Shown: positions 1,780 to 24,000, counted from the stretch's first letter. The stretch is 24,000 bases of DNA from Acholeplasmataceae bacterium (GCA_963675245.1 OY775910.1:752801-776800); one strand, 5' to 3'. Notes: a model not told the origin generated them from the letters alone. Program-made: numbers and translations.

Positions 1780-1804
1780 AGGACACATTGTTGTCCTTTT
1801 CTTT
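1779..1804 (+). terminator. Weak rho-independent terminator after rnfB
   Basis: AAGGACA (1779-1785) pairs with TGTCCTT (1792-1798), followed by TTCTTT. Confidence 0.45.
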
Positions 1805-1827
1805 GCAGGTATGAAAGAAGGGGTCTT

Positions 1828-2892: not shown

Positions 2893-2893
2893 A

Positions 2894-3394: not shown

Positions 3395-3397
3395 CCT

Positions 3398-3916: not shown

Positions 3917-3940
3917 TTTTTTGAAAGTGGAAACAAATGC

Positions 3941-3969
3941 TTGCACTCGTGTGGGCTTAATGATATAAT
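3941..3969 (+). promoter_or_regulatory. Sigma-70/SigA-type promoter of rpmE
   Basis: TTGCAC (3941-3946), 17 nt spacer, TATAAT (3964-3969) with an extended -10 TG at 3961-3962. Confidence 0.6.
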
Positions 3970-4025
3970 GTATTCGCAAAACTTACTATGGCGGACAAAA
4001 AGCCATGGCGGAAGGAGACCAAACG

Positions 4026-4289
4026 ATGAAAAAAGGAATTCATCCAAATTTCAACGTTATTAAGGTAAAATGCTCAACTTGCGGGTTTGAACATGAAATC
4101 GGAACGACAATTAAAGATTTCAGAATTGATACATGTTCAAATTGCCATCCATTCTATACAGGACAACAAACGTTCGTTCAGGCAGCTGGACGTGTTGAAA
4201 GATTCAACAAGCGTTATGGCATTAACAGCAATCAGCAACAACCACAAAACGAAGAAAATACAGAAGCAGAAGTTAAAGAACAAGAATAA
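4026..4289 (+). CDS. rpmE: 50S ribosomal protein L31 (Zn-ribbon type A) with a Q/E-rich C-terminal extension
   Basis: MKKGIHPNF...CSTCG...CSNCHPFYTGQQ...GRVERFNKRYG is the canonical L31 sequence. GGAAGGAG RBS lies upstream of ATG 4026, so the track's 4005 start was rejected. Confidence 0.92.
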   Translation: MKKGIHPNFNVIKVKCSTCGFEHEIGTTIKDFRIDTCSNCHPFYTGQQTFVQAAGRVERFNKRYGINSNQQQPQNEENTEAEVKEQE

Positions 4290-4312
4290 CGTGATATTAA
4301 TCACGTTTTTTC
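4289..4312 (+). terminator. Rho-independent terminator after rpmE
   Basis: ACGTGAT (4289-4295), ATTA loop, ATCACGT (4300-4306), then TTTTTCTT. Confidence 0.75.
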
Positions 4313-4339
4313 TTAAACAGAGGACAGAGGTGTCAGGGG

Positions 4340-4930
4340 ATGTATCATACATATAACAAAGGGTTTATTGAAGTTGTCTGTGGACCAATGTTTGCAGGTA
4401 AAACAGAAGAGTTGATTAGACGAATCAAAAGACTTGAATATGCGAAACAAAATGTACTCGTCTTTAAACCAGCTGTTGATGTTCGCTATGAAAAAGATGA
4501 AATTGTCTCACATAACCTATCTAAAAAACCATCCATCGTTGTAGGTACAAGTGGAGAAATTATGGATTATGTTCAAGAAGCAACGGACGCTGTTGTGATT
4601 GATGAAGCACAATTTTTTGATCACGGGATTGTTGATGTTGCTGAACATTTAGCAGATCGCGGAATTCGCGTGATTGTAGGCGGTTTAGATACTGACTTTA
4701 GAGGTGAACCATTTGGTGCAATGCCAGACTTGCTTGCTAGAGCTGAGTTTGTTACAAAACTCACTGCGATTTGTGTGAAGAGCGGGTTACCAGCAACAAG
4801 AACACAACGTATCATTAATGGTAGACCAGCGAATTATTCGGATCCTTTAGTGCTGATTGGCGCGACAGAGTCTTATGAACCAAGATCAAGACATTATCAT
4901 GAAGTCCCAGGAAAACCTAAAAAAGATTAA
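4340..4930 (+). CDS. tdk: Thymidine kinase
   Basis: 196 aa. P-loop GPMFAGKTEELIRR and DEAQFF, with a C-terminal Zn-lasso region. Typical type II TK. Confidence 0.92.
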   Translation: MYHTYNKGFIEVVCGPMFAGKTEELIRRIKRLEYAKQNVLVFKPAVDVRYEKDEIVSHNLSKKPSIVVGTSGEIMDYVQEATDAVVIDEAQFFDHGIVDVAEHLADRGIRVIVGGLDTDFRGEPFGAMPDLLARAEFVTKLTAICVKSGLPATRTQRIINGRPANYSDPLVLIGATESYEPRSRHYHEVPGKPKKD

Positions 4931-4934
4931 ATTT

Positions 4935-5366
4935 ATGACCGCTGCACTTAAAGAAGCACAAAAAGCATTTGAAAAAAATGAAGTGCCCGTTGGTGCAGTC
5001 GTCGTATATGATGGTAAAATCATTGCGAGAGGTCATAATAAAAGAGAAGGCGAACAGCTCATTCACGGCCATGCAGAATTTTTGGCAATGATGAAAGCTG
5101 CGAAAAAATTAGGCAGTTGGCGGTTAGAAGATTGTGACATATATGTGACGATGGAGCCGTGCCCAATGTGTGCTGGCGCGATGATTCAATCACGTGTTAG
5201 AAATGTTTTTTATGGTGTTAAGGATTATAAGTCTGGTGTCGCTGATAGTATCATGGAAATGTTTGACTTACCCTTTAATCATCATGTGCACGTTGAAGGA
5301 ATGATTATGGCAGAAGAAAGCGAAGCATTGTTAAAAAGGTTTTTCAAACAATTAAGACATAAATAG
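4935..5366 (+). CDS. tadA: tRNA-specific adenosine deaminase
   Basis: CDA-fold motifs HAE (GHAEFLA) and PCPMCAGA. Start set to ATG 4935 (MTAALKEAQKA...) just after the tdk stop. The track's 4857 start lies inside tdk. Confidence 0.9.
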   Translation: MTAALKEAQKAFEKNEVPVGAVVVYDGKIIARGHNKREGEQLIHGHAEFLAMMKAAKKLGSWRLEDCDIYVTMEPCPMCAGAMIQSRVRNVFYGVKDYKSGVADSIMEMFDLPFNHHVHVEGMIMAEESEALLKRFFKQLRHK

Positions 5367-5478
5367 CCCTTTTCGGGCATCATCACTCAATTGTAGCGTG
5401 TGAACCTGGTCAGGCCTTGATCGGAGCAGCCATAAGCACTTCTATGATGTGGGTGATGATGCCCGAGTAGGGCTTTTA
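5365..5478 (+). ncRNA. ffs: Signal recognition particle RNA (small 4.5S/scRNA type)
   Basis: ACCTGGTCAGGCC...GGAGCAGCCATAAGCA matches the conserved SRP domain IV motif (GGUCAGGUCC....GGAAGCAGCCAAGGCA). It is closed by a long helix, GGGCATCATCAC (5375-5386) with GTGATGATGCCC (5453-5464), and an outer pair AGCCC/GGGCT. Ends in a T-run. Position directly after tadA mirrors the tadA-scr arrangement in Bacillus. Ends are approximate. Confidence 0.75.
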
Positions 5479-5570
5479 TTATTTGAATAACCAATAAATC
5501 ATGTACTAACCAGATACTAAAGGTGTATACTATACAATGTAAGAAATAAAAAAATTCAAGATTTAGTGGG

Positions 5571-7901
5571 GTGCTTAAGGTGGGGAAAAAGTCTATTTGG
5601 TTAATCTTAATCATGATGTTTTTTTTAGTATCTTGCCAAAGTCAAATTTCTAGCATAGAAGATATCGATAACTATATTGAAAATTTTATGTCTCACAGTA
5701 ATCAATTTAATATTGATACAACAATTGATGCATCTATTACTGCTAACGGTGTTGAAACATCACTTACTGAAGAGATTGAAATGTTTATTCAAATAGAGCC
5801 ATACTACCTTACATATGTGGACGAAGGTATGACATATATAGAGTATATGGAAGACGACTTAATAAAAACAGCTTCGTATGATGAAATGTCACAAGTTGAA
5901 GGAAAATTTCTATATACATATTTAGAATATTTGCCTGATAATTATACAACATACGATATTGAATTAGATTTAAAAGACAATCATTATGATATAAAAAAGA
6001 CAAGACAGGGTTCATATGTCATAGAGGCTAACGTTAGAGATTTACTTTCAGAAAATGATTATGAATTAATTAATGCAATGATGGGCTCATTTCATTCAAC
6101 AGATGATTTTATAGAAGATGCTACTGCTAAAGCAGAGATTTTTTTATCAAGAAAAGAAATACGTTATATTGTGACAGTAAATATCGATATTGATGATTAT
6201 GATATTGCAGTGGAAGTTACAATGGACTTAAAAATTAGGTATGCATCATTTACAACAGTCGATGTTAGTGATACAACATTGTTTTTCCCTATCTCTTCTG
6301 GTGAAGGATCAGCTGTCATTGATGTTCACGAACATATATTATATCCTGCTCATCGAACAGGAGCAGTTAGTTACGATATTTATTTAGAGCCAGGTAAGTA
6401 TGTGTTTGATATCTTAGAAGAAGATTTTTCTGGAAGAAGAGTTCATGTTAATATCTATGACAAAAATACACTTGAAAGTGTATTAACTTTCGCAGACGTA
6501 TATAGTCCTACATACGATTTATATGAATCATCTATTAACACCTATTTCAATATCAATGAGGTGGGATATTACGAAATATTCATTGAGTATCCAGAATCAA
6601 ACATACCCGTAATTAGTCAACTTAAGGAGTATGAATATGATACAGATGGCACGATAAATCATGACTTAGTGGTTACTGAAAGTGGTACATATTACTACAA
6701 CATTGAAGGCCCATATGATTTCTTTTCTATCTATATTGACATACCTGGTTATACATATGTAGATATCACAAATTCAAACGGAAATAAGATGTATTTTACA
6801 GAATATGGCGAAGAAGAAATATATCATACATATAGTTTACACAATACACTTTCATATTTAAATCATGATCCACACAATATTTATATATTTGGTGACAACG
6901 CAATCAGTGGGACAGTTACTATTGAGTTAGAGCATTTAGATACAGCGGGTGAAATAGATTTTGACACAATGCCCGACATGCTAACAACGTTTGACATATA
7001 TTTACACACACAAAGTGACTTTATAGATCAATATTTAAAAGTTGAAATCATATCTCAAGGGTTTTATGAATTCTACTATGATATTATTGAAGGCTATCCA
7101 TTGATAAAAGATGCCCTGTATACTCAAAATGGAGAATTAGTAACAAACATCAATGAAGGCGAGATTGTACCACTAAGTATAGGAACATATTATTATTTAG
7201 TTTTGGGTGATAATTATGATGGTTACTACGGCATACGATATGATATGACATCAAAACATATTATCTCAAACGATTTGACAACACTTAATTCAATTGAAAC
7301 ACTTATAGGTAATTTAAATGACCTAAACTTAATTTGGGATTCAATAACAAGTAAAGATGACTATATTGTTTACAATTTTACATTGACAGAAGAAACAGAC
7401 GTTGTTATATCAAATGAAAGTGAATATCAATTGTATGCTGCTAGTGGAGAGAAGATTAGTTTAAATTTATATGATGCCACGTCGTATGGTGTTTACAGAT
7501 TAGATGCTGGAGACTACTTTGTTGGGGTGACGTTACCAAAAACATTTAATACAGATAATCTACCTTATGAGTATCATTTACTGCTTGGAGAATTAAATGT
7601 TCCTGGTTCTGAAAATGATACTTCAGTTTATCCATACTTTGAAATTTTAGAACCAAGAACCTGGGGAAATTCAATGCCAGATTATCTGGGAGATATTGAT
7701 GGTTATAAAATTATAGTTGACAAAGAAACAACATATGCTTTTACAGCTTATGAGTGGACAACAATTTTCAAAGGCAAACAACTGATTGCCACATTTTACA
7801 ACAGTGATACAATAACATTAGAACCTGGGATTTATTATGTCATTGGTGCGAGAAACCCAGAATATAATCCTTGGCACTTATACTATGATATTGTGGCGTA
7901 A
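5571..7901 (+). CDS. Large surface lipoprotein with repeated beta-sandwich-like modules, unknown function
   Basis: 776 aa. Signal peptide plus lipobox FFLVSC. Rich in Y/D/E/I/N. At least 8 recurrences of a strand motif h-x-x-G-x-Y-[YF]-h. The GTG start at 5571 is uncertain, since GTG 5580 is in frame. Confidence 0.75.
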   Translation: MLKVGKKSIWLILIMMFFLVSCQSQISSIEDIDNYIENFMSHSNQFNIDTTIDASITANGVETSLTEEIEMFIQIEPYYLTYVDEGMTYIEYMEDDLIKTASYDEMSQVEGKFLYTYLEYLPDNYTTYDIELDLKDNHYDIKKTRQGSYVIEANVRDLLSENDYELINAMMGSFHSTDDFIEDATAKAEIFLSRKEIRYIVTVNIDIDDYDIAVEVTMDLKIRYASFTTVDVSDTTLFFPISSGEGSAVIDVHEHILYPAHRTGAVSYDIYLEPGKYVFDILEEDFSGRRVHVNIYDKNTLESVLTFADVYSPTYDLYESSINTYFNINEVGYYEIFIEYPESNIPVISQLKEYEYDTDGTINHDLVVTESGTYYYNIEGPYDFFSIYIDIPGYTYVDITNSNGNKMYFTEYGEEEIYHTYSLHNTLSYLNHDPHNIYIFGDNAISGTVTIELEHLDTAGEIDFDTMPDMLTTFDIYLHTQSDFIDQYLKVEIISQGFYEFYYDIIEGYPLIKDALYTQNGELVTNINEGEIVPLSIGTYYYLVLGDNYDGYYGIRYDMTSKHIISNDLTTLNSIETLIGNLNDLNLIWDSITSKDDYIVYNFTLTEETDVVISNESEYQLYAASGEKISLNLYDATSYGVYRLDAGDYFVGVTLPKTFNTDNLPYEYHLLLGELNVPGSENDTSVYPYFEILEPRTWGNSMPDYLGDIDGYKIIVDKETTYAFTAYEWTTIFKGKQLIATFYNSDTITLEPGIYYVIGARNPEYNPWHLYYDIVA

Positions 7902-7913
7902 TTTATAAAGTTA

Positions 7914-7956
7914 AAACAGAAGATTTATTATATGAACGATAAATCTTCTGTTTTTA
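7914..7956 (+). terminator. Strong rho-independent terminator
   Basis: AAACAGAAGATTTAT (7914-7928) pairs with ATAAATCTTCTGTTT (7939-7953), followed by a T-run. Confidence 0.85.
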
Positions 7957-8009
7957 TGATGAAATCATAACATTTCACGCCTTTTACTTTACGCTTGCGA
8001 GTATGATGA

Positions 8010-8018
8010 TGTTATAAT
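8010..8018 (+). promoter_or_regulatory. Extended -10 promoter candidate for the 8051-13432 gene string
   Basis: TGTTATAAT (TG at 8010-8011, TATAAT at 8013-8018), 33 nt before the start at 8051. No well-spaced -35 element. Confidence 0.4.
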
Positions 8019-8050
8019 GATTATGACGTAAAATAACGGAGGAAACATAT

Positions 8051-8719
8051 ATGAGATTAAACCCTAAAGTATTTAAGGCACTTACAGGCGATCCTTTCGC
8101 TGTGCAAGAGATTGATGGCCAAAGAGTGGAATTCCATTATATGGACGATACACCATATCTCGAACAATATACGGCACGTGGTCGTTTCGCGATTTGGACA
8201 TCAGACGGTAAAGGAAATTATAAAGTTCTTATTCAAAGTCAATATTATGAAGCATTGAAACCATTTTATGAACAAGGTGTTAATAAAATTTGGTTAGGTT
8301 TTTTATCAAAAGTTGGCACGATGAGCAGAAAAGTAAACATGTTATTCTTAATTCCAACAATGGTTGTTTACGCGATTGCAGTTGTGTTGTTCTCAATTTT
8401 CTGGGAAGAACAAATTATGATCTTATTGATTGTCATGCTCGCAAGCGTTATTGTTACTAACATGTTTCAAAGCAGATATGTTAACAAGAAAGTAAAAGAA
8501 GAAAACAACAACACACAAGAAGCAATTAAAGCATATGTGGGAGAAGAAGAATTCTCAGCATTAGTTAAAAACCAAGAAACATTCTTTGCTGAATATTTTA
8601 AGACCGAAGAAGTTCAGCCTGAAACACCTGCTGAAAGTGAAGAACAAGAAGTGATTGAAGCAGACATAGAACCATCTGAAACAAATAGTAATGAAGAGGA
8701 CGATTCAAATGACAAATAA
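8051..8719 (+). CDS. Membrane protein of unknown function (soluble N-domain, 2 TM helices, acidic C-terminal tail)
   Basis: 222 aa. GGAGG RBS at 8039-8043. TM segments LFLIPTMVVYAIAVVLFSIF and IMILLIVMLASVIVTNMF. E/D-rich tail. No family recognised. Confidence 0.65.
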   Translation: MRLNPKVFKALTGDPFAVQEIDGQRVEFHYMDDTPYLEQYTARGRFAIWTSDGKGNYKVLIQSQYYEALKPFYEQGVNKIWLGFLSKVGTMSRKVNMLFLIPTMVVYAIAVVLFSIFWEEQIMILLIVMLASVIVTNMFQSRYVNKKVKEENNNTQEAIKAYVGEEEFSALVKNQETFFAEYFKTEEVQPETPAESEEQEVIEADIEPSETNSNEEDDSNDK

Positions 8720-10661
8720 GGCAATAGATGCAATCAGATTTTTAGCTGTTGATGCCATCAATAAGGCAAACAGCGGACACCCAGGTATTGTTTTAGGATC
8801 TGCACCAATGGCATATCAACTTTTCACAGAACACTTAAACATTGACGTTAAGAATCCTAAATGGATCAACCGTGACCGTTTTGTATTATCTGCTGGTCAT
8901 GGCTCAATGTTACTATATGCATTAAACCATCTTGTTGGATATAAAGTATCCATGGAAGATATAAAGAATTTTAGACAAATTGGAAAAACACCAGGACATC
9001 CTGAATATGGACATACTGAAGGTGTAGAAACAACTTCTGGACCATTAGGCCAAGGGATTAGTAATGCTGTCGGTATGGCGTTAGCTGAAACACATTTAGC
9101 CGCTAGATTTAATAAAGAAAATTTCCCAATCATCAATCATTACACATATGCTTTATGTGGTGATGGTGATCTTCAAGAAGGGGTTGCTTTAGAAGCAGTA
9201 AGTCTTGCAGGACATTTAGGGTTAGGCAAACTCATTGTTTTATATGATTCAAATGATATCCAATTAGACGGACCAACCAAATGGGCAATAAGCGAAGATA
9301 AAAAAGGTAAGTTTGAGGCATTAGGCTGGCAATATATCCTAGTAAAAGATGGCAATGATTTAGTTGCTTTACAAAAGGCGATTAGAAAAGCGAAAAGAGA
9401 AACAGAAAAACCAACACTCATCGAAGTGAAGACAGTCATTGGTTATGGTACCAGTTTAGCGGGCACTTCGGCTGTACATGGTGCAGCGATTGGTGAAGAA
9501 AAAGCTGATGAAATGCGCAAAAATTTAGGGTGGGAATTTCCACCGTTTGAAATACCTAGTGAGATTTATAATTTATATCGTCGCAAGGTAACATTGCGTG
9601 GACAACGTGTTCATCGTCGTTGGAAGAAACTTTTAAGTGAATATCGTTCTTCTTATCCAAATGAAGCAGCATTACTAGATTCATTTTTGGACGGTCACGT
9701 GACGGTTAATCTTGATGATTATGCAAACATCATGAATGTTGATAAAGAAGCGACTCGTGCGACGAGTGGCAAAATGATTAATGCATTATCATCTAAGTAT
9801 TTGAATTTGATTGGTGGATCTGCAGATTTAACCGCTTCTACAAAAGCGAAAGGTGCAGATGGGCATTTTAATAAGGAAAACAGATTAGCAAGAAACGTAA
9901 ACTTCGGTGTCAGAGAACACGCGATGGGTGCGATTGCTAATGGTATGGTTTTACATGGCGGGTTAAAAGTGTTTACGGGTGCGTTCTTCGTATTCAGTGA
10001 TTACATGAAACCAGCTATACGCTTAGCAGCGATTATGCAAATCCCTACGATTTTTGTCTTCTCACATGATACAATCGCAGTTGGAGAAGATGGACCAACG
10101 CACGAACCTATTGAACAATTAGCTGGTTTACGTGCAATTCCCGGGCTTAATGTGATTCGTCCTGCAGATGCGAAAGAAGTTGCTGCTGCATGGAAAGTCG
10201 CGATGGAATCAACAAGCACACCTACTGCTATTATCTTAACAAGACAAGGTATTAAAAACCATGCCTCTTCAAGTTATGAAGGGCTTGTTAAAGGTGCTTA
10301 TGTGGTATCTCCTGAAAAAGAAACTATCGATGGTATTTTATTAGCTGCTGGATCAGAAGTTGATTTAGCGTTAGAAGCGAAAAAGTTATTATCAGCAGAA
10401 GGTAAAGACATTAGAGTTGTTAGCATGCCTTCGCACTATTTCTTTGAAAAACAAACAAAGAAATATCAAAAACAAATTTTACCTGGACGTGCAAAAGTGG
10501 TTGCGGTAGAAATGGGTTCAAGACAGTCTTGGTATAAATATGCAAAAGATGTTTATGGCTTAGATGAGTTTGGTGTAAGTGCGCCACAAGATGTTGCACT
10601 TAAGCATTTCCATTTCACACCGGAAGAACTTGCAGCATATGCAAAAAAGGTATTTAAGTAA
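8709..10661 (+). CDS. tkt: Transketolase
   Basis: [17 protein letters not shown], the TPP-binding GDGDLQEG, and [20 protein letters not shown] are all canonical transketolase motifs. Start set to ATG 8709, with GAAGAGGA upstream. Confidence 0.93.
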
Positions 10662-10672
10662 GAAGTGATTTT

Positions 10673-12535
10673 ATGATTTACGATGGTATCATCGTTGGCG
10701 CTGGTCACGCAGGTGTAGAAGCTGCACTTGCCATGGCACGCATGAATAAGCATACAATACTCATTACAGGCAACCTGAACAAGGTTGCTTCTTTGCCTTG
10801 TAACCCCTCTATTGGTGGTCCTGCTAAAGGGATTGTTGTAAGAGAAATTGACGCACTCGGTGGCCAAATGGCTAAAAGTGCGGATCAAGGGCAAATTCAA
10901 ATCAAGATGTTAAATGCATCTAAAGGACCTGCTGTAAGAGCGTTACGCGCACAAATTGATAAATTAATGTATCCAAAAATTATGTTAGATGTGTTAAAAA
11001 ATACTGAAAACCTGACCCTATTAGAAGAACTCGTTGACCAAATGATCGTTGAAGATAATCGTGTCACCGGTGTTATATTAAAGAATGGTGAAAAGGTTTA
11101 TGGAAAAACAGTTATTCTAACGACAGGTACATATCTTGCAAGTAATATTTTAATTGGTAAAGAAAAGACAACCAGTGGGCCACATGGTGAACCGACGACA
11201 TTTGGTATATCTGGTCAATTAAAAGAATTGGGATTTGAAGTAGTTCGTTTAAAGACGGGCACACCACAACGCATCGCGATTGATTCGATCGATCCATCAA
11301 AAATGGTCGTTCAACCTGGCGATGAGATGGCATGGACATTCAGCTATGATAATCATTATCAGGATGAAAACCCGCAAAAGGTTTGTTATTTAACACACAC
11401 CACACCAGAAACACACGAGATCATTAATGAACACTTAACTGAATCTGCGATGTATGGTGGTATTGTTGAAGGTGTTGGACCAAGATATTGTCCATCCATT
11501 GAAGATAAAGTGGTTCGCTTTTCTGATAAGAACAGACACCAAATCTTTATTGAACCGGAAAGTTTATCTTTAGATGAATTATATGTTCAAGGTTTTTCAA
11601 CAAGTCTTCCAAGAGATGTTCAAGAAGAAATGATTAGAACTATCCCTGGATTAGAAAACGTTAAGATTATAAGGTACGCGTACGCGATAGAGTATGACGC
11701 AATTAATCCTATTCAATTAAACGCGACGTTAGAAACAAAACGTATTGAAAACTTATTTTGTGCGGGACAAATCAATGGCACAAGTGGTTATGAAGAAGCA
11801 GCTGGTCAAGGTTTAATGGCAGGTATTAATGCTGCGTTAAAGTTAGACCATAAAGAGCCACTTGTCTTAGAAAGACATGAAGCGTATATTGGTGTTTTAA
11901 TTGATGACCTAGTTACTAAAGGAACAGTAGAACCATATCGCTTGTTTACATCACGTGCTGAACATCGTCTTTTATTAAGACATGATAATGCAGATATCAG
12001 ACTTCGCGATTATGGCTATCAAATCGGTTTAGTGGATGAACAGACCTATCAATCGTATCTCGCTAAAAAAGACGCAATAAGTGCTTTATATGAAGACGTA
12101 AATACGTATCGCGTGTTGCCAACGGATGATAACAATCATTATTTAACATCTCGTGGCTCTGCGAAGATATTTGAAGCGATGACGATTGCTGATTTACTTA
12201 AGCGACCTGAGTTTAATCGTCAAGATATTGTTCACTTTCTGGGTGATCGATATGAAGAGGATATTTTAGAACAAGTTGAAATTGATATTAAATATGATGG
12301 TTATATCAAGAAGGCACTAAGAGAAGCTGAACGTATGACACGTTTGGAACATAAACTAATACCTGCTGATATTGATTATCATGATATTAACAATCTTTCC
12401 TCTGAGAGCCGTGAAAAATTATTAAAGATTAACCCTAGAACCATTGGTCAGGCATCACGAATATCAGGTGTTAATCCTGCAGATATATCGGTGTTAGTTG
12501 TTTATATTGAAGCGGGGATGAGAAAACGTGTTTAA
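10673..12535 (+). CDS. mnmG: tRNA uridine 5-carboxymethylaminomethyl modification enzyme MnmG (GidA)
   Basis: 620 aa. N-terminal FAD fold [17 protein letters not shown], plus [11 protein letters not shown] and [26 protein letters not shown]. Confidence 0.95.
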
Positions 12536-19857: not shown

Positions 19858-19933
19858 GGCTCTGTAGCTCAGTCGGTAGAGCAAAGGACTGAAAATCCTT
19901 GTGTCGGCAGTTCAATTCTGCCCGGAGCCACCA
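19858..19933 (+). tRNA. trnF: tRNA-Phe (GAA). Intact gene and anchor of the cassette array
   Basis: 76 nt. Acceptor GGCTCTG/CGGAGCC, anticodon arm AAGGA-CTGAAAA-TCCTT, T-arm GGCAG-TTCAATT-CTGCC, CCA encoded. Confidence 0.95.
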
Positions 19934-19947
19934 TGGAGACCTTAAAT

Positions 19948-19974
19948 AAGCCATTTATAGTGGCTTTTTCTTTT
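19948..19974 (+). terminator. Rho-independent terminator after tRNA-Phe (prototype of the repeated terminator)
   Basis: AAGCCA, 7-nt loop, TGGCTT, then TTTCTTTT. Confidence 0.8.
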
Positions 19975-20009
19975 ATAAAACGCTTAAAAGTCAATCATTT
20001 GATTATATA

Positions 20010-20039
20010 TTGTCTAGATTAATTAAACAATGGTATAAT
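20010..20039 (+). promoter_or_regulatory. Cassette 1 promoter
   Basis: TTGTCT (20010-20015), 18 nt spacer, TGgTATAAT (TATAAT 20034-20039). The -10 starts 60 nt after the terminator T-run. Confidence 0.6.
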
Positions 20040-20064
20040 AAAAGAAAATTGTTGGTGGGGATTT

Positions 20065-20616
20065 ATGAAAAAAATTCTAATAGTTTTATTGTTTATTTTT
20101 TTGCTAACTGGTTGTGCTAAACAACGAACGGAAAATATTGTTGAAGATTTAAATGAGAGCAGTAATTTTGAATATGGCTTATTAATAGAAGTCACTAGTG
20201 ATATTAAAACTCATTTCAATATTAGTCCCGGTTTTGGAGTATATACACTTTTTGATTCATCCATTGAAATAGATATTCAGCAGGAAAGCATTCTAAGTTA
20301 TATAGATGAATATGAAACAACCACATATGATGTAACAGCATATCCAGATTATTCTGATGGTGGAGAATATATTACAATGATTTGGACGACCGATCCAGAT
20401 GTTCATATTTATGACTTATCTGTAGGTGATTCATATACTGAAGAGGAACTAAGTGAATATATGTTATCTTTAGGATTCACTCGAACAAACGATTCAGAAA
20501 ATATATTTATGTATAATAAAGAGCGATTAAATATTTCGATCTTCGTTGAGAGTAACATCATCACGAAGATGTATGTAAGAGTAGATATTACTAATAGATG
20601 GAATATTCAGTATTAA
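20065..20616 (+). CDS. Cassette 1: small lipoprotein, unknown function
   Basis: 183 aa. MKKILIVLLFIFLLTGC lipobox. GGTGGGG RBS. Acidic, Y/D/E-rich mature part. Confidence 0.75.
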   Translation: MKKILIVLLFIFLLTGCAKQRTENIVEDLNESSNFEYGLLIEVTSDIKTHFNISPGFGVYTLFDSSIEIDIQQESILSYIDEYETTTYDVTAYPDYSDGGEYITMIWTTDPDVHIYDLSVGDSYTEEELSEYMLSLGFTRTNDSENIFMYNKERLNISIFVESNIITKMYVRVDITNRWNIQY

Positions 20617-20645
20617 TTAATAGAATGAATTAGTAAAAGTTGCTT

Positions 20646-20738
20646 GAAACGACTGAAAATCCTTGTGTCGGCAGTTCAATTCTGCCCGGAGCCACCATGG
20701 AGACCTTAAATAAGCCATTGATAGTGGCTTTTTCTTTT
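20646..20738 (+). repeat. R1: GAAAC plus tRNA-Phe positions 30-76 plus terminator copy (att-like, no 5' half)
   Basis: 20651-20697 is identical to tRNA-Phe 19887-19933. The trailer and terminator are identical except for one loop base (T to G). Confidence 0.95.
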
Positions 20739-20774
20739 GTATATGGGGAAGCTTGTCCTTGTATTAACCAAGTA

Positions 20775-20803
20775 TTGTCCTCATTTGAAACTAATGCTAT
20801 AAT
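20775..20803 (+). promoter_or_regulatory. Cassette 2 promoter
   Basis: TTGTCC (20775-20780), 17 nt spacer, TGcTATAAT (TATAAT 20798-20803). The -10 starts 60 nt after the T-run. Confidence 0.6.
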
Positions 20804-20833
20804 TAAATTAATTAACACATGGGGGTAGAATTG

Positions 20834-21310
20834 ATGAAAAAAATAATTTTAATTTTTTTTGCAACATTCGTAGTTTTATTTATGTCAGCATGTAAACCAT
20901 ATACATATAACGGAAAAGAAATCGAGTCATTAAAATTCGTTGATATTGATTATTTTGGAGACTATAGACATGAATCAATCATTGATCTACAAAATGGAGA
21001 AGTACTCCACAGACAGTACTCGCCTGAAATCCCAACCCCAGATTATGAAATAGATTTTACATTTGATACTTCCGAAGTTGATTCTTTTTTGGATGAGTTT
21101 GGTTCATCAGGCATATTCAATTTAAAAGAAGAATATCATACAATCTATCATGTTGATGATGGTGGCGGATGGATATTTACAATTTATTATTCAGATGGAA
21201 CCGAAAAAACATCTACAGGAGATAATTATTGGTTAACGAAAGTTTTTGAAAAAGCAGGAACAGCGACTATCAATTTATACGGAGATAATTTATTTGATCC
21301 AGTACACTAG
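20834..21310 (+). CDS. Cassette 2: small lipoprotein, unknown function
   Basis: MKKIILIFFATFVVLFMSAC lipobox. Start moved to ATG 20834, downstream of GGGGG. Confidence 0.7.
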   Translation: MKKIILIFFATFVVLFMSACKPYTYNGKEIESLKFVDIDYFGDYRHESIIDLQNGEVLHRQYSPEIPTPDYEIDFTFDTSEVDSFLDEFGSSGIFNLKEEYHTIYHVDDGGGWIFTIYYSDGTEKTSTGDNYWLTKVFEKAGTATINLYGDNLFDPVH

Positions 21311-21332
21311 TCGATATATAGTTTGGCAGTAT

Positions 21333-21426
21333 GAAACGACTGAAAATTCTTGTGTCAGCGGTTCAATTCTGCCCGGAGCCACCATGGAGACCTTAAATAA
21401 GCCATTTATGATGGCTATTTCTTATT
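21333..21426 (+). repeat. R2: degenerate tRNA-Phe 3'-half plus terminator copy
   Basis: Three substitutions in the tRNA part (C40T, G49A, A52G), which breaks one T-stem pair. The terminator is re-registered as AGCCAT/ATGGCT. Confidence 0.95.
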
Positions 21427-21431
21427 GAAGA

Positions 21432-21440
21432 TGATATAAT
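21432..21440 (+). promoter_or_regulatory. Cassette 3 extended -10 promoter
   Basis: TGaTATAAT only 9 nt after the T-run, about 51 bp shorter than in the other cassettes. No -35 element. Confidence 0.45.
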
Positions 21441-21468
21441 CAAAATATGATTTCAGGGGGTTACACTT

Positions 21469-22011
21469 ATGAAGAAGACTATTATATTTTTCATGATGAT
21501 ATTAATTTGTGTATTACTTTATTCTTGTAATGGATATAATAATTTAATGTATGATCACTTGAGTGATTTGAATAATTATATATCAGTTACGGGAACGATA
21601 GAAAATATAGTATTTTTTGATGCAGATTGGAATGAATTGAATTGGGATTTATCTGATGATGATATTCCGGATTTATATGAACACTTATGCATATATATCA
21701 AGTTTTACTCTGAAGATGACTATCTGCAATTCACAGGAACATCAAATATTCCCGAAAATTTTGAGTATCAGTCAGTATCTATAATGTTTGATATGATTAA
21801 AACAAATATTGAAATATTAAACGAGAATAGCTTTTTTAAAGAATCGATGATTGATGAAGAAGTTTCAATAGTTACTTCAAATTGGATATATATGGATACA
21901 AATTTTTTTCAAATAGTTGGGCTGAGCTTTGAGGAGATTTCCTACCTTGATCCAGAAGAAGGGTTAAATAATTATAGTACTTATATGGAAGACAATAGTT
22001 CATTGTTTTAG
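21469..22011 (+). CDS. Cassette 3: probable small lipoprotein, unknown function
   Basis: 180 aa. MKKTIIFFMMILICVLLYSC, with an atypical Y at lipobox position -2. CAGGGGG RBS. Confidence 0.65.
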   Translation: MKKTIIFFMMILICVLLYSCNGYNNLMYDHLSDLNNYISVTGTIENIVFFDADWNELNWDLSDDDIPDLYEHLCIYIKFYSEDDYLQFTGTSNIPENFEYQSVSIMFDMIKTNIEILNENSFFKESMIDEEVSIVTSNWIYMDTNFFQIVGLSFEEISYLDPEEGLNNYSTYMEDNSSLF

Positions 22012-22026
22012 AAAGAAAGGGTACGT

Positions 22027-22119
22027 GTAACGACTGAAAATCCTTGTGTCGGCAGTTCAATTCTGCCCTGAGCAACCACGGAGACCTTAAATAAGCCATT
22101 TGTGATGGCTTATTCTTTT
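22027..22119 (+). repeat. R3: degenerate tRNA-Phe 3'-half plus terminator copy
   Basis: GTAAC replaces GAAAC. Substitutions G67T and C72A, and a trailer T to C change (CCACGG) shared with R4. Confidence 0.95.
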
Positions 22120-22154
22120 GTAAATTCAGTAAAAGTCCTTTTGCTTACTACGTT

Positions 22155-22184
22155 TTGTCGAAAACTAAATAGTAATGATATAAT
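22155..22184 (+). promoter_or_regulatory. Cassette 4 promoter
   Basis: TTGTCG (22155-22160), 18 nt spacer, TGaTATAAT (TATAAT 22179-22184). The -10 starts 60 nt after the T-run. Confidence 0.6.
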
Positions 22185-22208
22185 TAAAGAAAACTTTTTG
22201 GGGATCAC

Positions 22209-22712
22209 ATGAAAATAGAATATTTTATGATTGAACTTAAAGACATTTTAAAATCCTATTACTGTATATGGTATTTTTCTGAAAATAGCGAAAAGGATTT
22301 TTTAGTTAAAAGCAACAATAAGATTGCCGTATTTGATTATATTGAATCTGTAATTTTATATGCAAGTGTGAATAATATTGGATTATTGGATGAAAAACAG
22401 CATGCAATATACGATTTAAATTATATTCAAGATTTAGTTAATGGAAAAACATCTCACATTGATTGTAGCGATATACTTGATTTTTGGAATATAGTTGATG
22501 CAATATGTAATACACTGAATATTGTTTTCATTGGATTGGAACATAGATTTGATAAACTGTATGATAAATTATTCAGAGGATGTAATACAATATTAAATAA
22601 AGAAATATACACACCTCAATGGAGTAAAAGCGAAATTAATCAGATAAAAAAGTTATTGACAGAATTCCTATTGATTATTAGCAATGTGTTAAAAGGTGCA
22701 CGAAACGACTGA
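22209..22712 (+). CDS. Cassette 4: cytoplasmic protein, unknown function
   Basis: 167 aa with no signal peptide. GGGG RBS. The ORF reads into repeat R4 and stops at the TGA of GACTGAAA. Confidence 0.6.
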   Translation: MKIEYFMIELKDILKSYYCIWYFSENSEKDFLVKSNNKIAVFDYIESVILYASVNNIGLLDEKQHAIYDLNYIQDLVNGKTSHIDCSDILDFWNIVDAICNTLNIVFIGLEHRFDKLYDKLFRGCNTILNKEIYTPQWSKSEINQIKKLLTEFLLIISNVLKGARND

Positions 22713-22794
22713 AATTCCTTGTGTCGGCAGTTCAATTCTGCCCGGAGCAACCACGGAGATCTTAAATAAGCCATTGATAGTGGCTTTTTCTTTT
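22702..22794 (+). repeat. R4: tRNA-Phe 3'-half plus terminator copy
   Basis: Substitutions A38T and C72A in the tRNA part, and trailer changes CCACGG and GAGATC. The terminator stem matches the prototype and the loop matches R1. Confidence 0.95.
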
Positions 22795-22829
22795 GGAGAA
22801 TCATCAATAATCCCTTTGTCAACAATGCC

Positions 22830-22858
22830 TTGTCTAATTTTCATGAATAATATATAAT
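22830..22858 (+). promoter_or_regulatory. Cassette 5 promoter
   Basis: TTGTCT (22830-22835), 17 nt spacer, TATAAT (22853-22858). The -10 starts 59 nt after the T-run. Confidence 0.6.
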
Positions 22859-22882
22859 TAAATAAAAAAGTGGGGAGTATAT

Positions 22883-23188
22883 ATGACACCAGAGATGGAA
22901 AAACTTTACAACAGTCTTAGTACGGTTAAAGTTAAAAATGTTGCACAAGCATATGATTATTTAGGTAACGAAGTAAATGGGCTTGATATGGATCATAAAT
23001 TGTCGTTTGAGATGACTCTAGAAGCTTTAAAGAACGTCAATAAAGATTATAAATTATTAAAAAAATATTATAAAGGTAAAATCGATACTAATCTTGAAAG
23101 TGTTTATACTAAGTATCCAGAAGATTCAGAAGAATATTTCTTTTTAAAGTGCTTAATTAGATTGACTGAATATAATGTCACGAGATAG
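22883..23188 (+). CDS. Cassette 5: small cytoplasmic protein, unknown function
   Basis: 101 aa. GTGGGGAG RBS. Helical, K/E/Y-rich composition. No family recognised. Confidence 0.6.
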   Translation: MTPEMEKLYNSLSTVKVKNVAQAYDYLGNEVNGLDMDHKLSFEMTLEALKNVNKDYKLLKKYYKGKIDTNLESVYTKYPEDSEEYFFLKCLIRLTEYNVTR

Positions 23189-23208
23189 AGGGTTTGACAT
23201 TTGTGTAT

Positions 23209-23231
23209 GAAACGACTGAAAATCTTTATAT
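23209..23231 (+). repeat. R5: core-only copy (pseudo anticodon arm, 20/23 match)
   Basis: GAAACGACTGAAAATCTTTATAT versus consensus GAAACGACTGAAAATCCTTGTGT. No T-arm or terminator follows. Confidence 0.85.
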
Positions 23232-23255
23232 TTACTCGTAAAAGGGGAAGTTAAA

Positions 23256-23570
23256 ATGATATTGTCTGAAAAAACAGATTTAAGTTTCTTTCACGACTCA
23301 AGAGTTGGTGAGATTAATTATAATTATGCGAGCAAATCTTTAATTTTTCACTTGTGTTTAGATAGTTCATCATCAATTAGAAGAGAAGTTGAACTCAAAG
23401 CTAACATTGTTTTTTCTGTAGAATTAAATTCGATAGAGCCTTGGGGACCAGGAATATACATAAATGAGGTCACATTAGAAGATAAAATAGAATTTAAAAG
23501 GCTATCAATAATAATAAATTCAGGAGATATATTTGTTATTGATGCAAATTTATTTGAAATAATTATTTAA
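23256..23570 (+). CDS. Cassette 6: small acidic cytoplasmic protein, immunity-protein-like
   Basis: 104 aa. AAAGGGGAAG RBS. The pattern FHDSRVGEINYNYASKSLIFHL...F..VEL.SIEPWG resembles small immunity proteins of polymorphic-toxin loci. This is similarity by recall only. Confidence 0.55.
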   Translation: MILSEKTDLSFFHDSRVGEINYNYASKSLIFHLCLDSSSSIRREVELKANIVFSVELNSIEPWGPGIYINEVTLEDKIEFKRLSIIINSGDIFVIDANLFEIII

Positions 23571-23577
23571 CATGCAT

Positions 23578-23600
23578 GAAACGACTGAAAATCCTTGTGT
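23578..23600 (+). repeat. R6: core-only copy (23/23 match to consensus)
   Basis: GAAACGACTGAAAATCCTTGTGT, followed directly by TATAAT and unrelated sequence. Confidence 0.9.
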
Positions 23601-23606
23601 TATAAT
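23598..23606 (+). promoter_or_regulatory. Cassette 7 extended -10 promoter formed at the core junction
   Basis: The last bases of the core (TGT) plus TATAAT (23601-23606) give TGtTATAAT. Confidence 0.4.
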
Positions 23607-23655
23607 TATATAATTTAATAACAGGAACAAAAAACTAAGTAAGGAAGAAAATGTC

Positions 23656-24000
23656 ATGAAAACATTAAAGGATATTGAAATTAAGGATTTCAATGAAAGT
23701 AATCTCATTAGATTTAAAAATATAAATATTGATGAAGATACCGAAGTTTACAATGTCACCATGCATGTTTTTGTTAAGAATAATTTTCTACAATGCATAT
23801 CAGAATCATTGACTTTTCATTCTAAAGAACTGTTAACATTTTTTGATAACTGCAAAGACATTTATGATAAATTGACCGGAAACACAACTATTGAATCGAT
23901 AGAAAACAAAAAATGTATATTGACATTGAAAGCAATAAGCAAAGGATATATTGAAATATCTGGAACAATAGAGCAATTAATTGGTTCAAACAAGTGCGAA
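23656..24000 (+). CDS. Cassette 7: cytoplasmic protein, unknown function (3' end beyond window)
   Basis: Not in the supplied ORF track because no stop is reached. ATG 23656 follows AAGGAAG, and the frame stays open for 115 codons to the window edge (MKTLKDIEIKDFNESNLIRFKNINIDEDTEVYNVTMHVF...). Confidence 0.6.
   Translation, partial: MKTLKDIEIKDFNESNLIRFKNINIDEDTEVYNVTMHVFVKNNFLQCISESLTFHSKELLTFFDNCKDIYDKLTGNTTIESIENKKCILTLKAISKGYIEISGTIEQLIGSNKCE

Follow-up and report, generated by a model that had tools for sequence, protein, structure and literature searches.

The window, a 24,000-nucleotide stretch of the genome of an Acholeplasmataceae bacterium (GCA_963675245.1, OY775910.1:752801-776800), includes an rRNA/tRNA operon that ends in an intact tRNA-Phe gene, followed by an array of small gene cassettes (Table 1). 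The first five cassettes are each preceded by a "head" of about 175-185 bp, present as five long, co-oriented copies in front of unrelated ORFs. A 28-nt core of this repeat family occurs seven times in the window, always in the same orientation. The two additional "short" copies of the core, starting at 23205 and 23574, lie beyond the region considered in an earlier note on this DNA. The array runs on past the end of the window.

Table 1. Features of the tRNA-Phe cassette array, with positions counted from the first nucleotide of the window.
Feature	Position	Strand	Details
tRNA-Phe(GAA), intact, last gene of rRNA/tRNA operon	19858-19933	+	ARAGORN; Rfam 71.9 bits
Core GACTGAAAATCC, putative crossover region	19887-19898	+	Anticodon loop CTGAAAA and flanking stem bases
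Native intrinsic terminator of tRNA operon	19948-19975	+	8-bp stem, 3-nt loop, TTTTTCTTTT; terminator scan; RNA fold centroid -7.9 kcal/mol
Cassette 1 promoter	20010-20039	+	TTGTCT, 18 nt, TGgTATAAT; 10/12 matches, TG present
Cassette 1 ORF	20065-20616	+	183-aa lipoprotein, GGGG RBS; LPAM_1
Site 2	20642-20668	+	Cassette-type left arm GCTTGAAAC, then core, then TTGTGT
Head 2 (pseudo tRNA-Phe 3' half, terminator, promoter)	20669-20833	+	tRNA half and terminator 87/88 identical to true gene
Head 2 terminator	20712-20739	+	
Head 2 promoter	20775-20803	+	TTGTCC, 17 nt, TGcTATAAT
Cassette 2 ORF	20834-21310	+	158-aa lipoprotein-like protein; alternative start 20819
Site 3 and shortened head	21329-21468	+	Pseudo tRNA half 81/88 identical, T-stem broken
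Head 3 terminator	21400-21426	+	Weakened
Head 3 -10	21435	+	TGaTATAAT, 10 nt past T-run, 50 nt missing
Cassette 3 ORF	21469-22011	+	180-aa lipoprotein-like protein
Site 4 and head 4	22023-22208	+	Left arm GTGTAAC; pseudo tRNA half 81/88 identical, acceptor strand altered
Head 4 terminator	22090-22120	+	
Head 4 promoter	22155-22184	+	TTGTCG, 18 nt, TGaTATAAT
Cassette 4 ORF	22209-22712	+	167 aa
Site 5 and head 5	22698-22882	+	Pseudo tRNA half 83/88 identical
Head 5 terminator	22768-22795	+	
Head 5 promoter	22830-22858	+	TTGTCT, 17 nt, TATAAT, TG absent
Cassette 5 ORF	22883-23188	+	101 aa
Site 6, short type	23205-23231	+	GTATGAAACGACTGAAAATCTTTATAT; no tRNA half, no terminator, RBS immediately after
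Cassette 6 ORF	23256-23570	+	104 aa
Site 7, short type	23574-23614	+	GCATGAAACGACTGAAAATCCTTGTGT
Extended -10 adjoining site 7	23598-23606	+	TGtTATAAT
Cassette 7 ORF, truncated by window end	23656-24000	+	Only a weak sub-threshold WapI-like match

A homologue of cassette 1 in another locus (L024) shares ~81% DNA identity and has a short head there, and homologues of the cassette 4 ORF are found in cassettes of two other loci. The stop codon of cassette 4 is a TGA within the core of site 5 (22710-22712). At site 6, the only promoter-like match in a consensus scan is weak and straddles the junction; by the same scan cassette 6 has no convincing promoter of its own, and it is probably co-transcribed with cassette 5.

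The earlier note had described the heads as a terminator, a promoter at a fixed distance and a G-rich RBS, and its measurements hold up. On recounting, the distance from the final T of the terminator run to the start of TATAAT is 60, 60, 60 and 59 nt in cassettes 1, 2, 4 and 5, and the TTGTCN -35 elements are placed 18, 17, 18 and 17 nt upstream of TATAAT. The extended -10 TG is found in three of these four (it is absent from cassette 5) and also in cassette 3. The ATG follows 24-30 nt past the -10 behind a GGGG that is a genuine RBS, unlike the GGAGG of housekeeping genes in the same window. In cassette 3, TATAAT lies only 10 nt past the T-run (9 in the earlier count) instead of about 60, so that this head is 50 nt shorter than the others (previously estimated at ~51).

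All five terminator-like sites that a consensus scan finds in the region fall in heads, against 1.4 expected. The promoters of cassettes 1, 2, 4 and 5 are among eight sites tied at the top score of 10/12, but promoter-like sites overall are not enriched (32 versus 28.6 expected), and the promoter signal is thus positional. Between copies, the tRNA half and terminator are 94% identical, the 35-nt spacer 40% (shuffled 27.5%, z 4.4) and the 31-nt promoter segment 51% (z 5.0), with essentially no indels. The fixed spacing is beyond chance, yet it reflects homology.

These values separate the head into two parts with different histories, an attachment-site arm and the cassette's own promoter. The first part, ~95 bp and 94% identical between copies, comprises a ~27-bp recombination site, a tRNA 3' half and the terminator of the tRNA operon; the recombination site is centred on the anticodon loop of tRNA-Phe (tGCATGAAAC, GACTGAAAATCC, TTGTGT). 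The second, ~90 bp and 40-51% identical, holds a promoter and 5' UTR that belong to the cassette. The conserved unit of about 180 bp proposed in the earlier note is a real repeat, but it is a composite and not a purpose-built insulator.

The window contains one intact tRNA-Phe gene and four partial copies of it, and the inserts lie between direct repeats of the tRNA's 3' part. The intact gene is the chromosomal attachment site (attB) and anchor of the array, and its terminator is the template for the four downstream copies; the terminator in each head is thus the tRNA operon's own, carried along. The only segment common to the tRNA and every cassette boundary is GACTGAAAATCC, where the homology between them begins, which would place the crossover inside the anticodon loop or stem. 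The site is predicted to consist of a left arm tGCATGAAACGA, a 7-bp overlap CTGAAAA, identical to the tRNA-Phe anticodon loop, and a right arm TCCTTGTGTC. An insert that enters the anticodon loop must carry the arm in order to rebuild the tRNA, and the first site of an array is always of the tRNA type (in the window, L043, L046 and L098). A second accessory site directly past the terminator was also considered and was, overall, unsupported.

When one cassette with its promoter is followed into three hosts, it is found behind three different, host-specific tRNA halves and terminators, so the ~95-bp arm tracks the host, not the cassette. This segment has presumably been homogenised with the resident gene. 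Internal copies decay: cassette 3 has a damaged T-stem and T-run in addition to its deletion, and cassettes 4 and 5 have acceptor-strand mutations.

Repeats of ~95 bp that are 92-99% identical to the true tRNA-Phe region (81-87/88) could support homologous exchange, and some homogenisation through gene conversion is probable. The array might then have arisen without a recombinase, if the 3' region of tRNA-Phe was duplicated locally in tandem or underwent unequal homologous recombination. However, the ORFs that separate the repeats are unrelated, every copy gains a non-tRNA arm, GCATGAAAC, exactly at the anticodon stem, the tRNA homology of short sites is limited to ~18 nt, and the same motif occurs in hosts whose MnmG is as little as 57% identical. 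On these sequence comparisons such an origin is already contradicted, and it is very improbable. A role of the pseudo-tRNA halves as RNA, such as marking points of processing or stabilisation along a long transcript, is equally hard to credit. tRNA-like punctuation is known in other systems, and the T-arm and acceptor strand of cassette 2 are intact and could still fold. Nevertheless, half a tRNA is unable to form the acceptor or anticodon stems, internal copies have stem-breaking changes, most cassettes lack the half altogether, and Rfam detects no tRNA at the pseudo copies.

Outside the window, 103 metagenome stretches contain a 21-mer of the site, as do genomes of Acholeplasmataceae, Izemoplasmatales, Mariniplasma and Bacillota, and the site also delimits co-oriented arrays in a number of genomes from Acholeplasmatales, Izemoplasmatales and Mycoplasmatota. 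A set of 233 sites gives the consensus tTGCATGAAACGACTGAAAATCCaTgTGTC, whose left edge is sharp; 73 of these sites are long, while the other 160 are short, without a tRNA half or terminator, as are those of cassettes 6 and 7 in the window. The GCATGAAAC arm is retained in 200 of 251 cores. Sites point in a single direction within every locus and reach a maximum of 11 per 9.5 kb. Cassettes have a median length of 761 bp, 168 of 179 have their longest ORF in the orientation of the site, and the encoded proteins form 129 families.

The integrase is absent from the 24-kb window, in which the array is cut by the window end, but related genomes carry one. In L098, the tRNA-Phe gene is followed by a 3.3-kb element encoding a tyrosine integrase and an XRE protein, and then by GCATGAAAC with an identical tRNA 3' half and terminator. 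The two ends are the same from the anticodon-arm core through the terminator, a classical attL/attR arrangement. L080, L128 (complete genome CP134495.1) and L129 have tRNA-Phe, an integrase together with Rep and XRE genes, and then arrays of long and short sites; in these three loci and in L098 the tyrosine recombinase gene adjoins the target tRNA. The integrase matches PF00589, and its nearest families and solved structures are of the Xer type (XerA, XerC-like). The replication gene encodes a rolling-circle Rep of the G2P or Viral_Rep type (PF23343, PF02407). At E <= 1e-20 the integrase has 261 homologues, those with a named source coming from Tenericutes, Mycoplasmatota, Izimaplasma, Bacilli, Firmicutes/Bacillota and one Bacteroidales MAG. 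In two DNA scans, an integrase lay within the retrieved stretch in only 3 of ~88 oriented loci, a count that excludes L128-L131, which were retrieved via the integrase itself.

Cassettes are reshuffled as units. Cassettes that are 98-100% identical are found beside different neighbours, and block indels and a change of order distinguish the array of L024 from that of L093, and the array of L033 from that of L066. The junction between cassettes 22 and 26 in L093 combines the left arm of the 22/23 junction of L024 with the right arm of its 25/26 junction, and the switch lies inside GACTGAAAATCC.

This turnover bears on the idea that the cassettes are not individually mobile and represent successive full-length integrase elements that inserted at tRNA-Phe and eroded, each keeping one cargo gene, like degenerate tycheposons or prophage remnants. 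Full elements are indeed inserted in tandem in L129, the tRNA halves decay with age, and most retrieved arrays have no visible integrase. Since the window's cassettes contain no fragments of integrase, Rep or XRE genes (all E > 0.9), they are not visibly gutted full elements. The frequent retention of the arm, the uniform cassette size with a complete, co-oriented ORF in each, and the clean chimeric junctions at which near-identical cassettes are re-ordered also speak against erosion, which is accordingly thought quite unlikely.

The observed site, its co-orientation, its linkage to tRNA-Phe and the integrase, the cassette turnover and the chimeric junctions point instead to a head that serves mainly as attachment site for mobile gene cassettes, which an Xer-like integrase stacks behind tRNA-Phe in wall-less Bacillota (probability roughly 0.8). 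A dedicated Xer-like tyrosine integrase, which in related genomes shares a ~3-kb element with a rolling-circle Rep and an XRE regulator, would recombine the site with the tRNA-Phe anticodon loop or with any earlier copy of the site. Entry at the tRNA itself would require that the insert supply the tRNA 3' half and terminator, as otherwise the tRNA-Phe copy of the locus would be destroyed. Every such entry would displace the previous 3' half downstream, and this displacement would leave the tandem copies of pseudo tRNA half plus terminator. The ~90 bp beyond the arm would be the cassette's own promoter (TTGTCN, 17/18 nt, TGnTATAAT), leader and GGGG RBS. Long cassettes would be able to sit beside the tRNA, while short ones, which carry the site only, presumably enter solely at internal sites. 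The array would thus accrete from cassettes that lack an integrase and mostly hold a single gene, and site-specific recombination would add, remove and re-order them. In the window's own genome, an acting enzyme is presumed, and the cassettes would be mobilised in trans.

The earlier note had seen in each cassette an insulated, self-expressed module, and cassettes 1 to 5 do have a hairpin, a T-run and a good sigma-70-type promoter. The -10, TG and -35 are kept although the rest of the spacer has diverged to 40% identity. Because of the hairpin/T-run and the conserved promoter elements, each of these cassettes probably has its own transcription and is protected from read-through. Promoter and terminator activity of the heads is predicted from motifs and folds: the terminator hairpins have modest folding energies (-7.9 to -10.9 kcal/mol), and most do not stand out from shuffled sequences, with z of -0.8 to -1.5 for four copies and -2.8 for cassette 4.

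A purpose-built expression and insulation module, in which the ~180-bp head is conserved to give each cassette a terminator and a fixed-distance promoter, is nevertheless unlikely. The hairpin, T-run and strong promoter in cassettes 1, 2, 4 and 5 and the preservation of hexamers and TG amid a diverged spacer agree with it, as does spacing within a few nt of 60 in two heads of L013 and in L086. Elsewhere, the spacing is ~90-100 nt or widely variable, so the regularity noted in the window extends to other genomes only in part and differs among head lineages. The loss of regular spacing in other genomes, which the earlier note had named as a result that would count against its reading, is thus partly seen. 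The terminator is copied from the tRNA operon and always joined to a tRNA 3' half that has no expression role, and the segment follows the host. It is missing from 160 of the 233 sites and from cassettes 6 and 7, internal copies decay, and integrases of the related loci retrieved show linkage either to tRNA-Phe or to the sites themselves. Insulation and self-expression are plausibly consequences for the long cassettes and not the reason why the head, with its attachment-site arm, is conserved.

The system resembles integrons in its co-oriented arrays of mostly single-gene, site-bounded cassettes with very diverse cargo, which are reshuffled as units, and in its use of a tyrosine recombinase, but it is unrelated to them. 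The integrase is Xer-like rather than IntI: its best model matches are of XerA and XerC types, and it scores only 85 bits with the integron-integrase model TIGR02249 (cutoff 265) and 52 bits with NF011946 (cutoff 435). The sites are ~27-bp sequence-conserved sites of a duplex type and lack the attC hairpin; single-stranded folds of the cassette junctions on both strands revealed no attC-like hairpins (-2 to -5.5 kcal/mol, z -0.6 to +0.7). The array is anchored at a tRNA gene, not attI, many cassettes have their own promoter, and the hosts are wall-less, low-GC Bacillota. The contrast with classical integrons drawn in the earlier note is therefore borne out.

Other systems share individual features. 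Cis-mobilizable elements (CIMEs), known along with the site-specific accretion of ICEs and IMEs from streptococci, are integrase-less, att-flanked units in tandem with an autonomous element, whose integrase is thought to mobilise them. The cassettes are likewise integrase-less units between att sites in tandem with an autonomous element, but CIME units are kilobases long, few and tied to conjugation, and are not known to form long single-gene arrays or to reconstitute a tRNA half per unit. In Xer/dif systems and the pdif modules of Acinetobacter plasmids, small gene modules lie between dif sites of alternating orientation. Shared features are a simple site of ~28 bp whose two arms are separated by a centre of 6-8 bp, an Xer-family enzyme and small site-bounded modules. 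However, the enzyme is here a dedicated, element-encoded one (not host XerC/D) whose gene adjoins the sites, a tRNA anticodon arm takes the place of dif, and all sites are direct.

Tycheposons (Hackl et al., bioRxiv 10.1101/2020.12.28.424599) belong to the integrative elements that target tRNA genes and pile up in tandem. They likewise combine a tyrosine recombinase, a replication module and cargo, integrate at tRNA genes leaving partial tRNA repeats, and have newer inserts that displace older ones into the island. In contrast, the units described here are uniform single-gene cassettes of ~0.4-1.8 kb with an intact 27-bp site that are individually reshuffled, the Rep is of the rolling-circle kind, unlike the primase, helicase or polymerase replication modules of tycheposons, and the hosts belong to another phylum. 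The mycoplasma vpma and vsa loci, which are Xer1-driven phase-variable lipoprotein loci (mentioned in PMC7466169), share mollicute-type hosts, an Xer-like recombinase and lipoprotein gene clusters with a conserved 5' region that contains a short recombination site. There, inversion between inverted sites switches a single promoter. In none of the loci examined here were sites found on both strands and, because every site is direct, the products are excision and insertion; the cargo comprises 129 families and not one paralogous family.

No prior description of this cassette system was found in the literature. There is about an even chance that Acholeplasmatales, Izemoplasmatales and other Mycoplasmatota possess here a previously undescribed means of gene capture that is independent of integrons. 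In such a system an Xer-like integrase, carried on a small rolling-circle replicon, would act at a ~27-bp site that copies the anticodon arm of tRNA-Phe, and hundreds of different single-gene cassettes would be inserted, excised and reshuffled behind tRNA-Phe, in two classes, a long, "tRNA-repairing" one and a minimal short one. As regards an integron-type platform of integrase, promoter and primary site, two cases bear on it: in L129 and L094 a conserved promoter follows the XRE gene, and ~30 nt further on there is a core with a non-cassette left arm, and then a cassette. Some cassettes may come under the control of the element's XRE regulator through the conserved AGCAAATTTACTTGCT promoter.

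The repeated head in front of the cassettes is best explained as an attachment-site arm, belonging to a cassette system with a Xer-like integrase and an anchor at tRNA-Phe, joined to promoters that the cassettes carry with them. In the window, tRNA-Tyr, a complete rRNA operon and eleven tRNAs come after the housekeeping genes rnf, apbE, tdk, tkt, mnmG and rsmG; the last of these tRNAs is tRNA-Phe(GAA). From there to the window end runs an array of seven cassettes, small co-oriented ORFs with a repeat between them. The repeat is present in five copies of about 175–185 nt, and two further boundaries keep only a remnant of it. The reading frame of cassette 4 extends into the repeat, since its stop codon lies in the recombination core. 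Searches of the window cargo against Pfam, NCBIfam and PHROGs returned only lipoprotein signal peptides and sub-threshold matches, and no integrase is found within the 24 kb. Exact look-ups of three of the window's cassette proteins gave no match. Elsewhere in the window, two ORFs after the SRP RNA gene have no Pfam match at E <= 0.001; the genes adjoining them are ordinary housekeeping genes.

Positions of features in the window and in related loci that carry the same site
Feature	Locus	Position	Remark
Housekeeping genes compared for RBS type	window	660-12528	
SRP RNA	window	5374-5468	
776-aa ORF	window	5571-7901	GTG start; immediately 3' of SRP RNA
222-aa ORF	window	8051-8719	next after 776-aa ORF
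tRNA-Phe(GAA)	window	19858-19933	final tRNA of operon
Repeat copy, cassette 1	window		at the tRNA-Phe anticodon arm
Repeat copy, cassette 2	window	20642	
Repeat copy, cassette 3	window	21329	
Repeat copy, cassette 4	window	22023	
Repeat copy, cassette 5	window	22698	
Cassette 4 stop codon	window	22710-22712	TGA in core (GAC-TGA-AAT)
Boundary, cassette 6	window	23205	~25 nt of repeat; outside the span of the earlier note
Boundary, cassette 7	window	23574	~25 nt of repeat; outside the span of the earlier note
RBSs of cassette ORFs	window	20053-23252	
IS200-like Y1 transposase gene	L128	11007-11477	between tRNA-Phe and integrase
AGCAAATTTACTTGCT module	L129	9300	reverse-complement coordinates
AGCAAATTTACTTGCT module	L129	12415	reverse-complement coordinates
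AGCAAATTTACTTGCT module	L094	1041	reverse-complement coordinates
AGCAAATTTACTTGCT module	L080	12495	reverse-complement coordinates
AGCAAATTTACTTGCT module	L128	12989	reverse-complement coordinates

The earlier note described this head as a terminator, a promoter and a G-rich RBS in front of unrelated ORFs, and its description is accurate for the five copies on recounting and scanning. The TATAAT hexamer starts 60, 60, 60 and 59 nt after the terminator T-run in cassettes 1, 2, 4 and 5, and only 10 nt after it in cassette 3, which lacks 50 nt. A -35 element of the form TTGTCN lies 17–18 nt 5' of the -10, cassettes 1–4 have the extended -10 TGn, and the ATG follows 24–30 nt past the -10 with GGGG in front. 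In a consensus scan, all five terminator-like sites of the region fell inside heads (1.4 expected), and four of the promoters reached the top score of 10/12, which four other sites share. The terminator hairpins are modest, with folding energies of -7.9 to -10.9 kcal/mol. A GGGG-type Shine-Dalgarno sequence precedes six of the seven cassette ORFs, as it does the cassette ORFs of the related loci L098 and L128, unlike the window's housekeeping genes, which mostly use GGAGG.

Conservation along the head drops abruptly past the T-run. The copies are 94% identical over the stretch that begins with the core, spans the tRNA 3' half and ends at the T-run; the next 35 nt are 40% identical (27.5% by chance, z 4.4) and the promoter segment 51% (z 5.0). 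The two parts of the head thus evolve under different regimes. The copies are homologous over their full length, which accounts for the constant spacing, and the retention of the -35, TG and -10 within a drifted spacer argues for functional promoters. The fixed distance proposed in the earlier note holds in the window and recurs within a few nucleotides in L086 and in two heads of L013, but it is not general. Another lineage of heads has a spacing of about 90–100 nt and a different, well-conserved promoter, AGCAAATTTACTTGCT-N12/13-TATAAT, which with its optional TG is found in 30 unique copies in the related loci, each of them on the cassette strand. In the remaining heads, the spacing ranges from 72 to 244 nt. 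L044 has a spacing like that of the window but was rejected as a member of its lineage, being a deletion derivative of the other one.

To the left of the tRNA-derived part, every boundary has a non-tRNA motif, (t)GCATGAAAC, in place of the tRNA's own GAGCAAAG. This left arm stands directly before the core, GACTGAAAATCC, which comprises the anticodon loop CTGAAAA and flanking stem bases. In a degenerate pattern search, the motif turned up in MAGs assigned to Acholeplasmataceae, Acholeplasmatales, Izemoplasmatales, Mariniplasma and "Bacillota", and the 21-mer GCATGAAASGACTGAAAATCC is present in 103 metagenome stretches. Within each locus, all sites are on the same strand, with up to 11 sites per 9.5 kb. 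The consensus of 233 sites is tTGCATGAAACGACTGAAAATCCaTgTGTC, with a sharp left edge; 73 are long sites followed by the tRNA T-arm, and 160 are short, consisting of the site alone. The hosts are deeply diverged, as the window's MnmG shares only about 57% identity with its counterparts in L080 and L128.

Alternative left arms, TGCA(G/A)TTTTG-GACTG and TTAACG-GACTG, are also seen (L009, L016, L058, L097; L048, L062, L089), which suggests sub-families of cassettes or integrases with a common core. Partial tRNA-Phe 3' halves with the same starting position in the anticodon arm are found in L014, L015 (Mucilaginibacter) and L022 (Opitutales), where further integrative elements in unrelated phyla appear to use the same crossover point.

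A second, accessory site was considered in the form of a degenerate full site right after the terminator (ATAAAACGCTTAAAAGTC in cassette 1, TAAAAGTCCTTTTGC in cassette 4, and 18/27 matches in L098), but it failed its control and was rejected as a general feature: the best match over 59 long heads was 13.2, against 13.0 in shuffled sequence. The right arm also has an inverted copy, GACACAAGGAC, in 12 of 67 long heads, including those of L009, L043, L058, L059, L067, L069, L076, L084, L094 and L097, against a control frequency of 3%. It reads GACACA(A/T/G)GGAC, the inverse of the tRNA's TCC(T/A/C)TGTGTC, with a variable base that appears to track the host tRNA, and mostly lies 97–101 nt after the site (outliers 85 and 179 nt). 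This copy, which none of the window heads has, may be an accessory binding site for the integrase.

The median cassette length is 761 bp. In 168 of 179 cassettes, the longest ORF runs in the same direction as the site; the proteins form 129 families. Among the cargo are lipoproteins, membrane proteins, Fic, HNH, HepT/MNT, GNAT, methyltransferase, AAA_14/DUF4143, a trypsin-like peptidase and several DUFs. The same cassettes (98–100% identical) are seen beside different neighbours: L024 holds cassettes 20–26 in order, L093 has 22 directly before 26 and another neighbour upstream, and L033 and L066 have two common cassettes in reversed order. The 22/26 junction of L093 joins the unusual left arm of cassette 22, GCAGTAAAC, to the right arm of cassette 26, ATG(C/T)GT-tatt.cggaat, and the switch falls inside GACTGAAAATCC. 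Such junctions are exactly as site-specific exchange would predict. Their composition implies that the left arm is the 3' end of the upstream cassette, and that everything from about TCC/TTGTGT on belongs to the downstream one, including the tRNA half, terminator and promoter if present.

An insert that recombines in the anticodon loop would swap the 3' half of the tRNA for the sequence after its own site, so that any insert at the tRNA must bring a working 3' half and in practice would also have to supply the tRNA operon with a terminator. The resident half, once displaced, would become the next "pseudo tRNA half plus terminator", and long heads would stand in tandem because entry at the tRNA displaces resident halves. 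Entry at the tRNA would likewise account for the tRNA-type site always being first in the array, and displacement for the intact copy at the far end of the array in L128. Cassette 2 matches the true tRNA-Phe gene at 87 of 88 positions, and cassettes 3, 4 and 5 at 81–83 of 88, with changes in the T-stem or acceptor strand; such decay of internal copies would be that of displaced halves.

A lipoprotein cassette and its promoter are about 82% identical in L009, L084 and L044 but stand behind three different tRNA halves and terminators, a segment only 56–66% identical. The arm of about 95 bp thus follows the host, not the cassette, probably through selection at entry and homogenisation with the resident copy. 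In L086, the promoter and leader of window cassette 5 (ATATAATTAAATAAAAAA...GGGG) stand behind a different tRNA half. A homologue of cassette 1 in L024 shares about 81% DNA identity with it, and their pairwise alignment gives a mean column identity of 86%. Its promoter-like stretch, TTGTCT...TATAA, resembles that of cassette 1 and stands only 10 nt past a short site, with neither tRNA half nor terminator, which indicates that the promoter part is cassette-borne.

The earlier note saw each cassette as an insulated, self-expressed module. This interpretation is partly borne out: the long cassettes are probably shielded by a terminator and transcribed from their own promoters. The arrangement is not universal, since the head is absent from two of the seven window cassettes and from about two thirds of cassettes elsewhere. 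Cassette 6 has no convincing promoter and no terminator in front, so cassettes 5 and 6 are probably co-transcribed, and cassette 7 has only an extended -10 abutting the site. Insulation and self-expression thus appear to be a by-product of the integration mechanism and cassette-borne promoters.

Clustering of all locus ORFs revealed a tyrosine recombinase adjoining the sites in three loci. L098 is the model case: an intact tRNA-Phe comes first, then a 160-aa ORF, an integrase gene on the opposite strand, the XRE regulator and small ORFs, and last GCATGAAAC with the core and with a tRNA 3' half and terminator that are identical to those following tRNA-Phe. In L080, tRNA-Phe precedes the integrase, a rolling-circle Rep (PF23343), XRE and a short site. 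Two integrase homologues led to further contexts that agree with this arrangement. The complete genome L128 (CP134495.1) shows mnmG-rsmG...parA-parB and then a tRNA cluster whose last gene is tRNA-Phe; an IS200-like gene, integrase and XRE come next, and after them twelve more sites, long and short intermixed. The last site is an intact tRNA 3' half that precedes a flanking gene. In L129, two tandem integrase elements stand before the cassettes.

The integrase is Xer-like. It has the R...HxxR...H...Y residues and matches PF00589; its best NCBIfam models are XerA and XerC, both under their cutoffs, and the closest solved structures are XerA and XerC-like. The 261 homologues at E <= 1e-20 include, among those with source names, Tenericutes, Mycoplasmatota, Izimaplasma, Bacilli, Firmicutes/Bacillota and one Bacteroidales MAG. 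A viral origin was rejected, as the site has no exact match in IMG/VR and the integrase is at most about 28% identical to phage integrases. The idea that the cassettes are gutted full elements was also discarded: the window has no remnants of integrase, Rep or XRE.

The REP_ORF2-G2P gene of the element is full-length (310 aa) in L131 and reduced to a 111-aa remnant in L129 and L130, so some copies are losing the replication module. Directly 3' of the XRE gene, the autonomous elements have a promoter/operator-like AGCAAATTTACTTGCT module, which may serve as an expression platform similar to that of integrons or else be a site at which the XRE regulator acts. In L129 and L094, about 30 nt past it lies a core site whose left arm is not of the cassette kind (gttacg/gttagg GACTGAAAATCC), and a lipoprotein cassette comes next.

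Functionally, the array works like an integron, but it is not one; the earlier note likewise set it apart from classical integron cassettes. The defining features of integrons, the IntI integrase and attC hairpins, were both looked for: the integrase scores 85 bits with the integron-integrase model, whose cutoff is 265, and attC hairpins are absent. Mechanistically, the system would belong with tRNA-targeting tyrosine-integrase elements that accrete in tandem. Conceptually, its nearest described relatives are the tycheposons and the streptococcal cis-mobilizable elements, which are integrase-less; it differs from both in its uniform single-gene cassettes, intact 27-bp site, rolling-circle Rep partner and host group. 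Xer/dif-bounded modules and the Xer1 inversion switches of mycoplasmas are reminiscent, but here all sites are direct and the enzyme is element-encoded. A literature search of incomplete coverage, on this system in Acholeplasma/Izimaplasma, tRNA-Phe cassettes and integron-like systems, found nothing relevant.

For annotation, repeats of the "pseudo-tRNA plus terminator" kind should be taken as attachment sites and not as regulatory inventions. The system opens to test the expression logic of own-promoter cassettes versus the promoterless ones of integrons, how a tRNA gene at a recombination hot spot is preserved, and the origin of cassettes. It would also offer a compact recombination system, probably light on host factors, for engineering mollicute-type chassis. 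If the cassettes are mobilised as units, this would be a second, integron-unrelated way to stockpile and shuffle single genes, relying on a small Xer-like enzyme and a simple duplex site of 27 bp, in reduced-genome bacteria whose evolution was believed to proceed mainly through gene loss. Such a system would account for the large flexible gene pool beside the origin-proximal rRNA/tRNA operon, with its lipoproteins, membrane proteins, Fic, HepT/MNT, GNAT, HNH and many unknowns.
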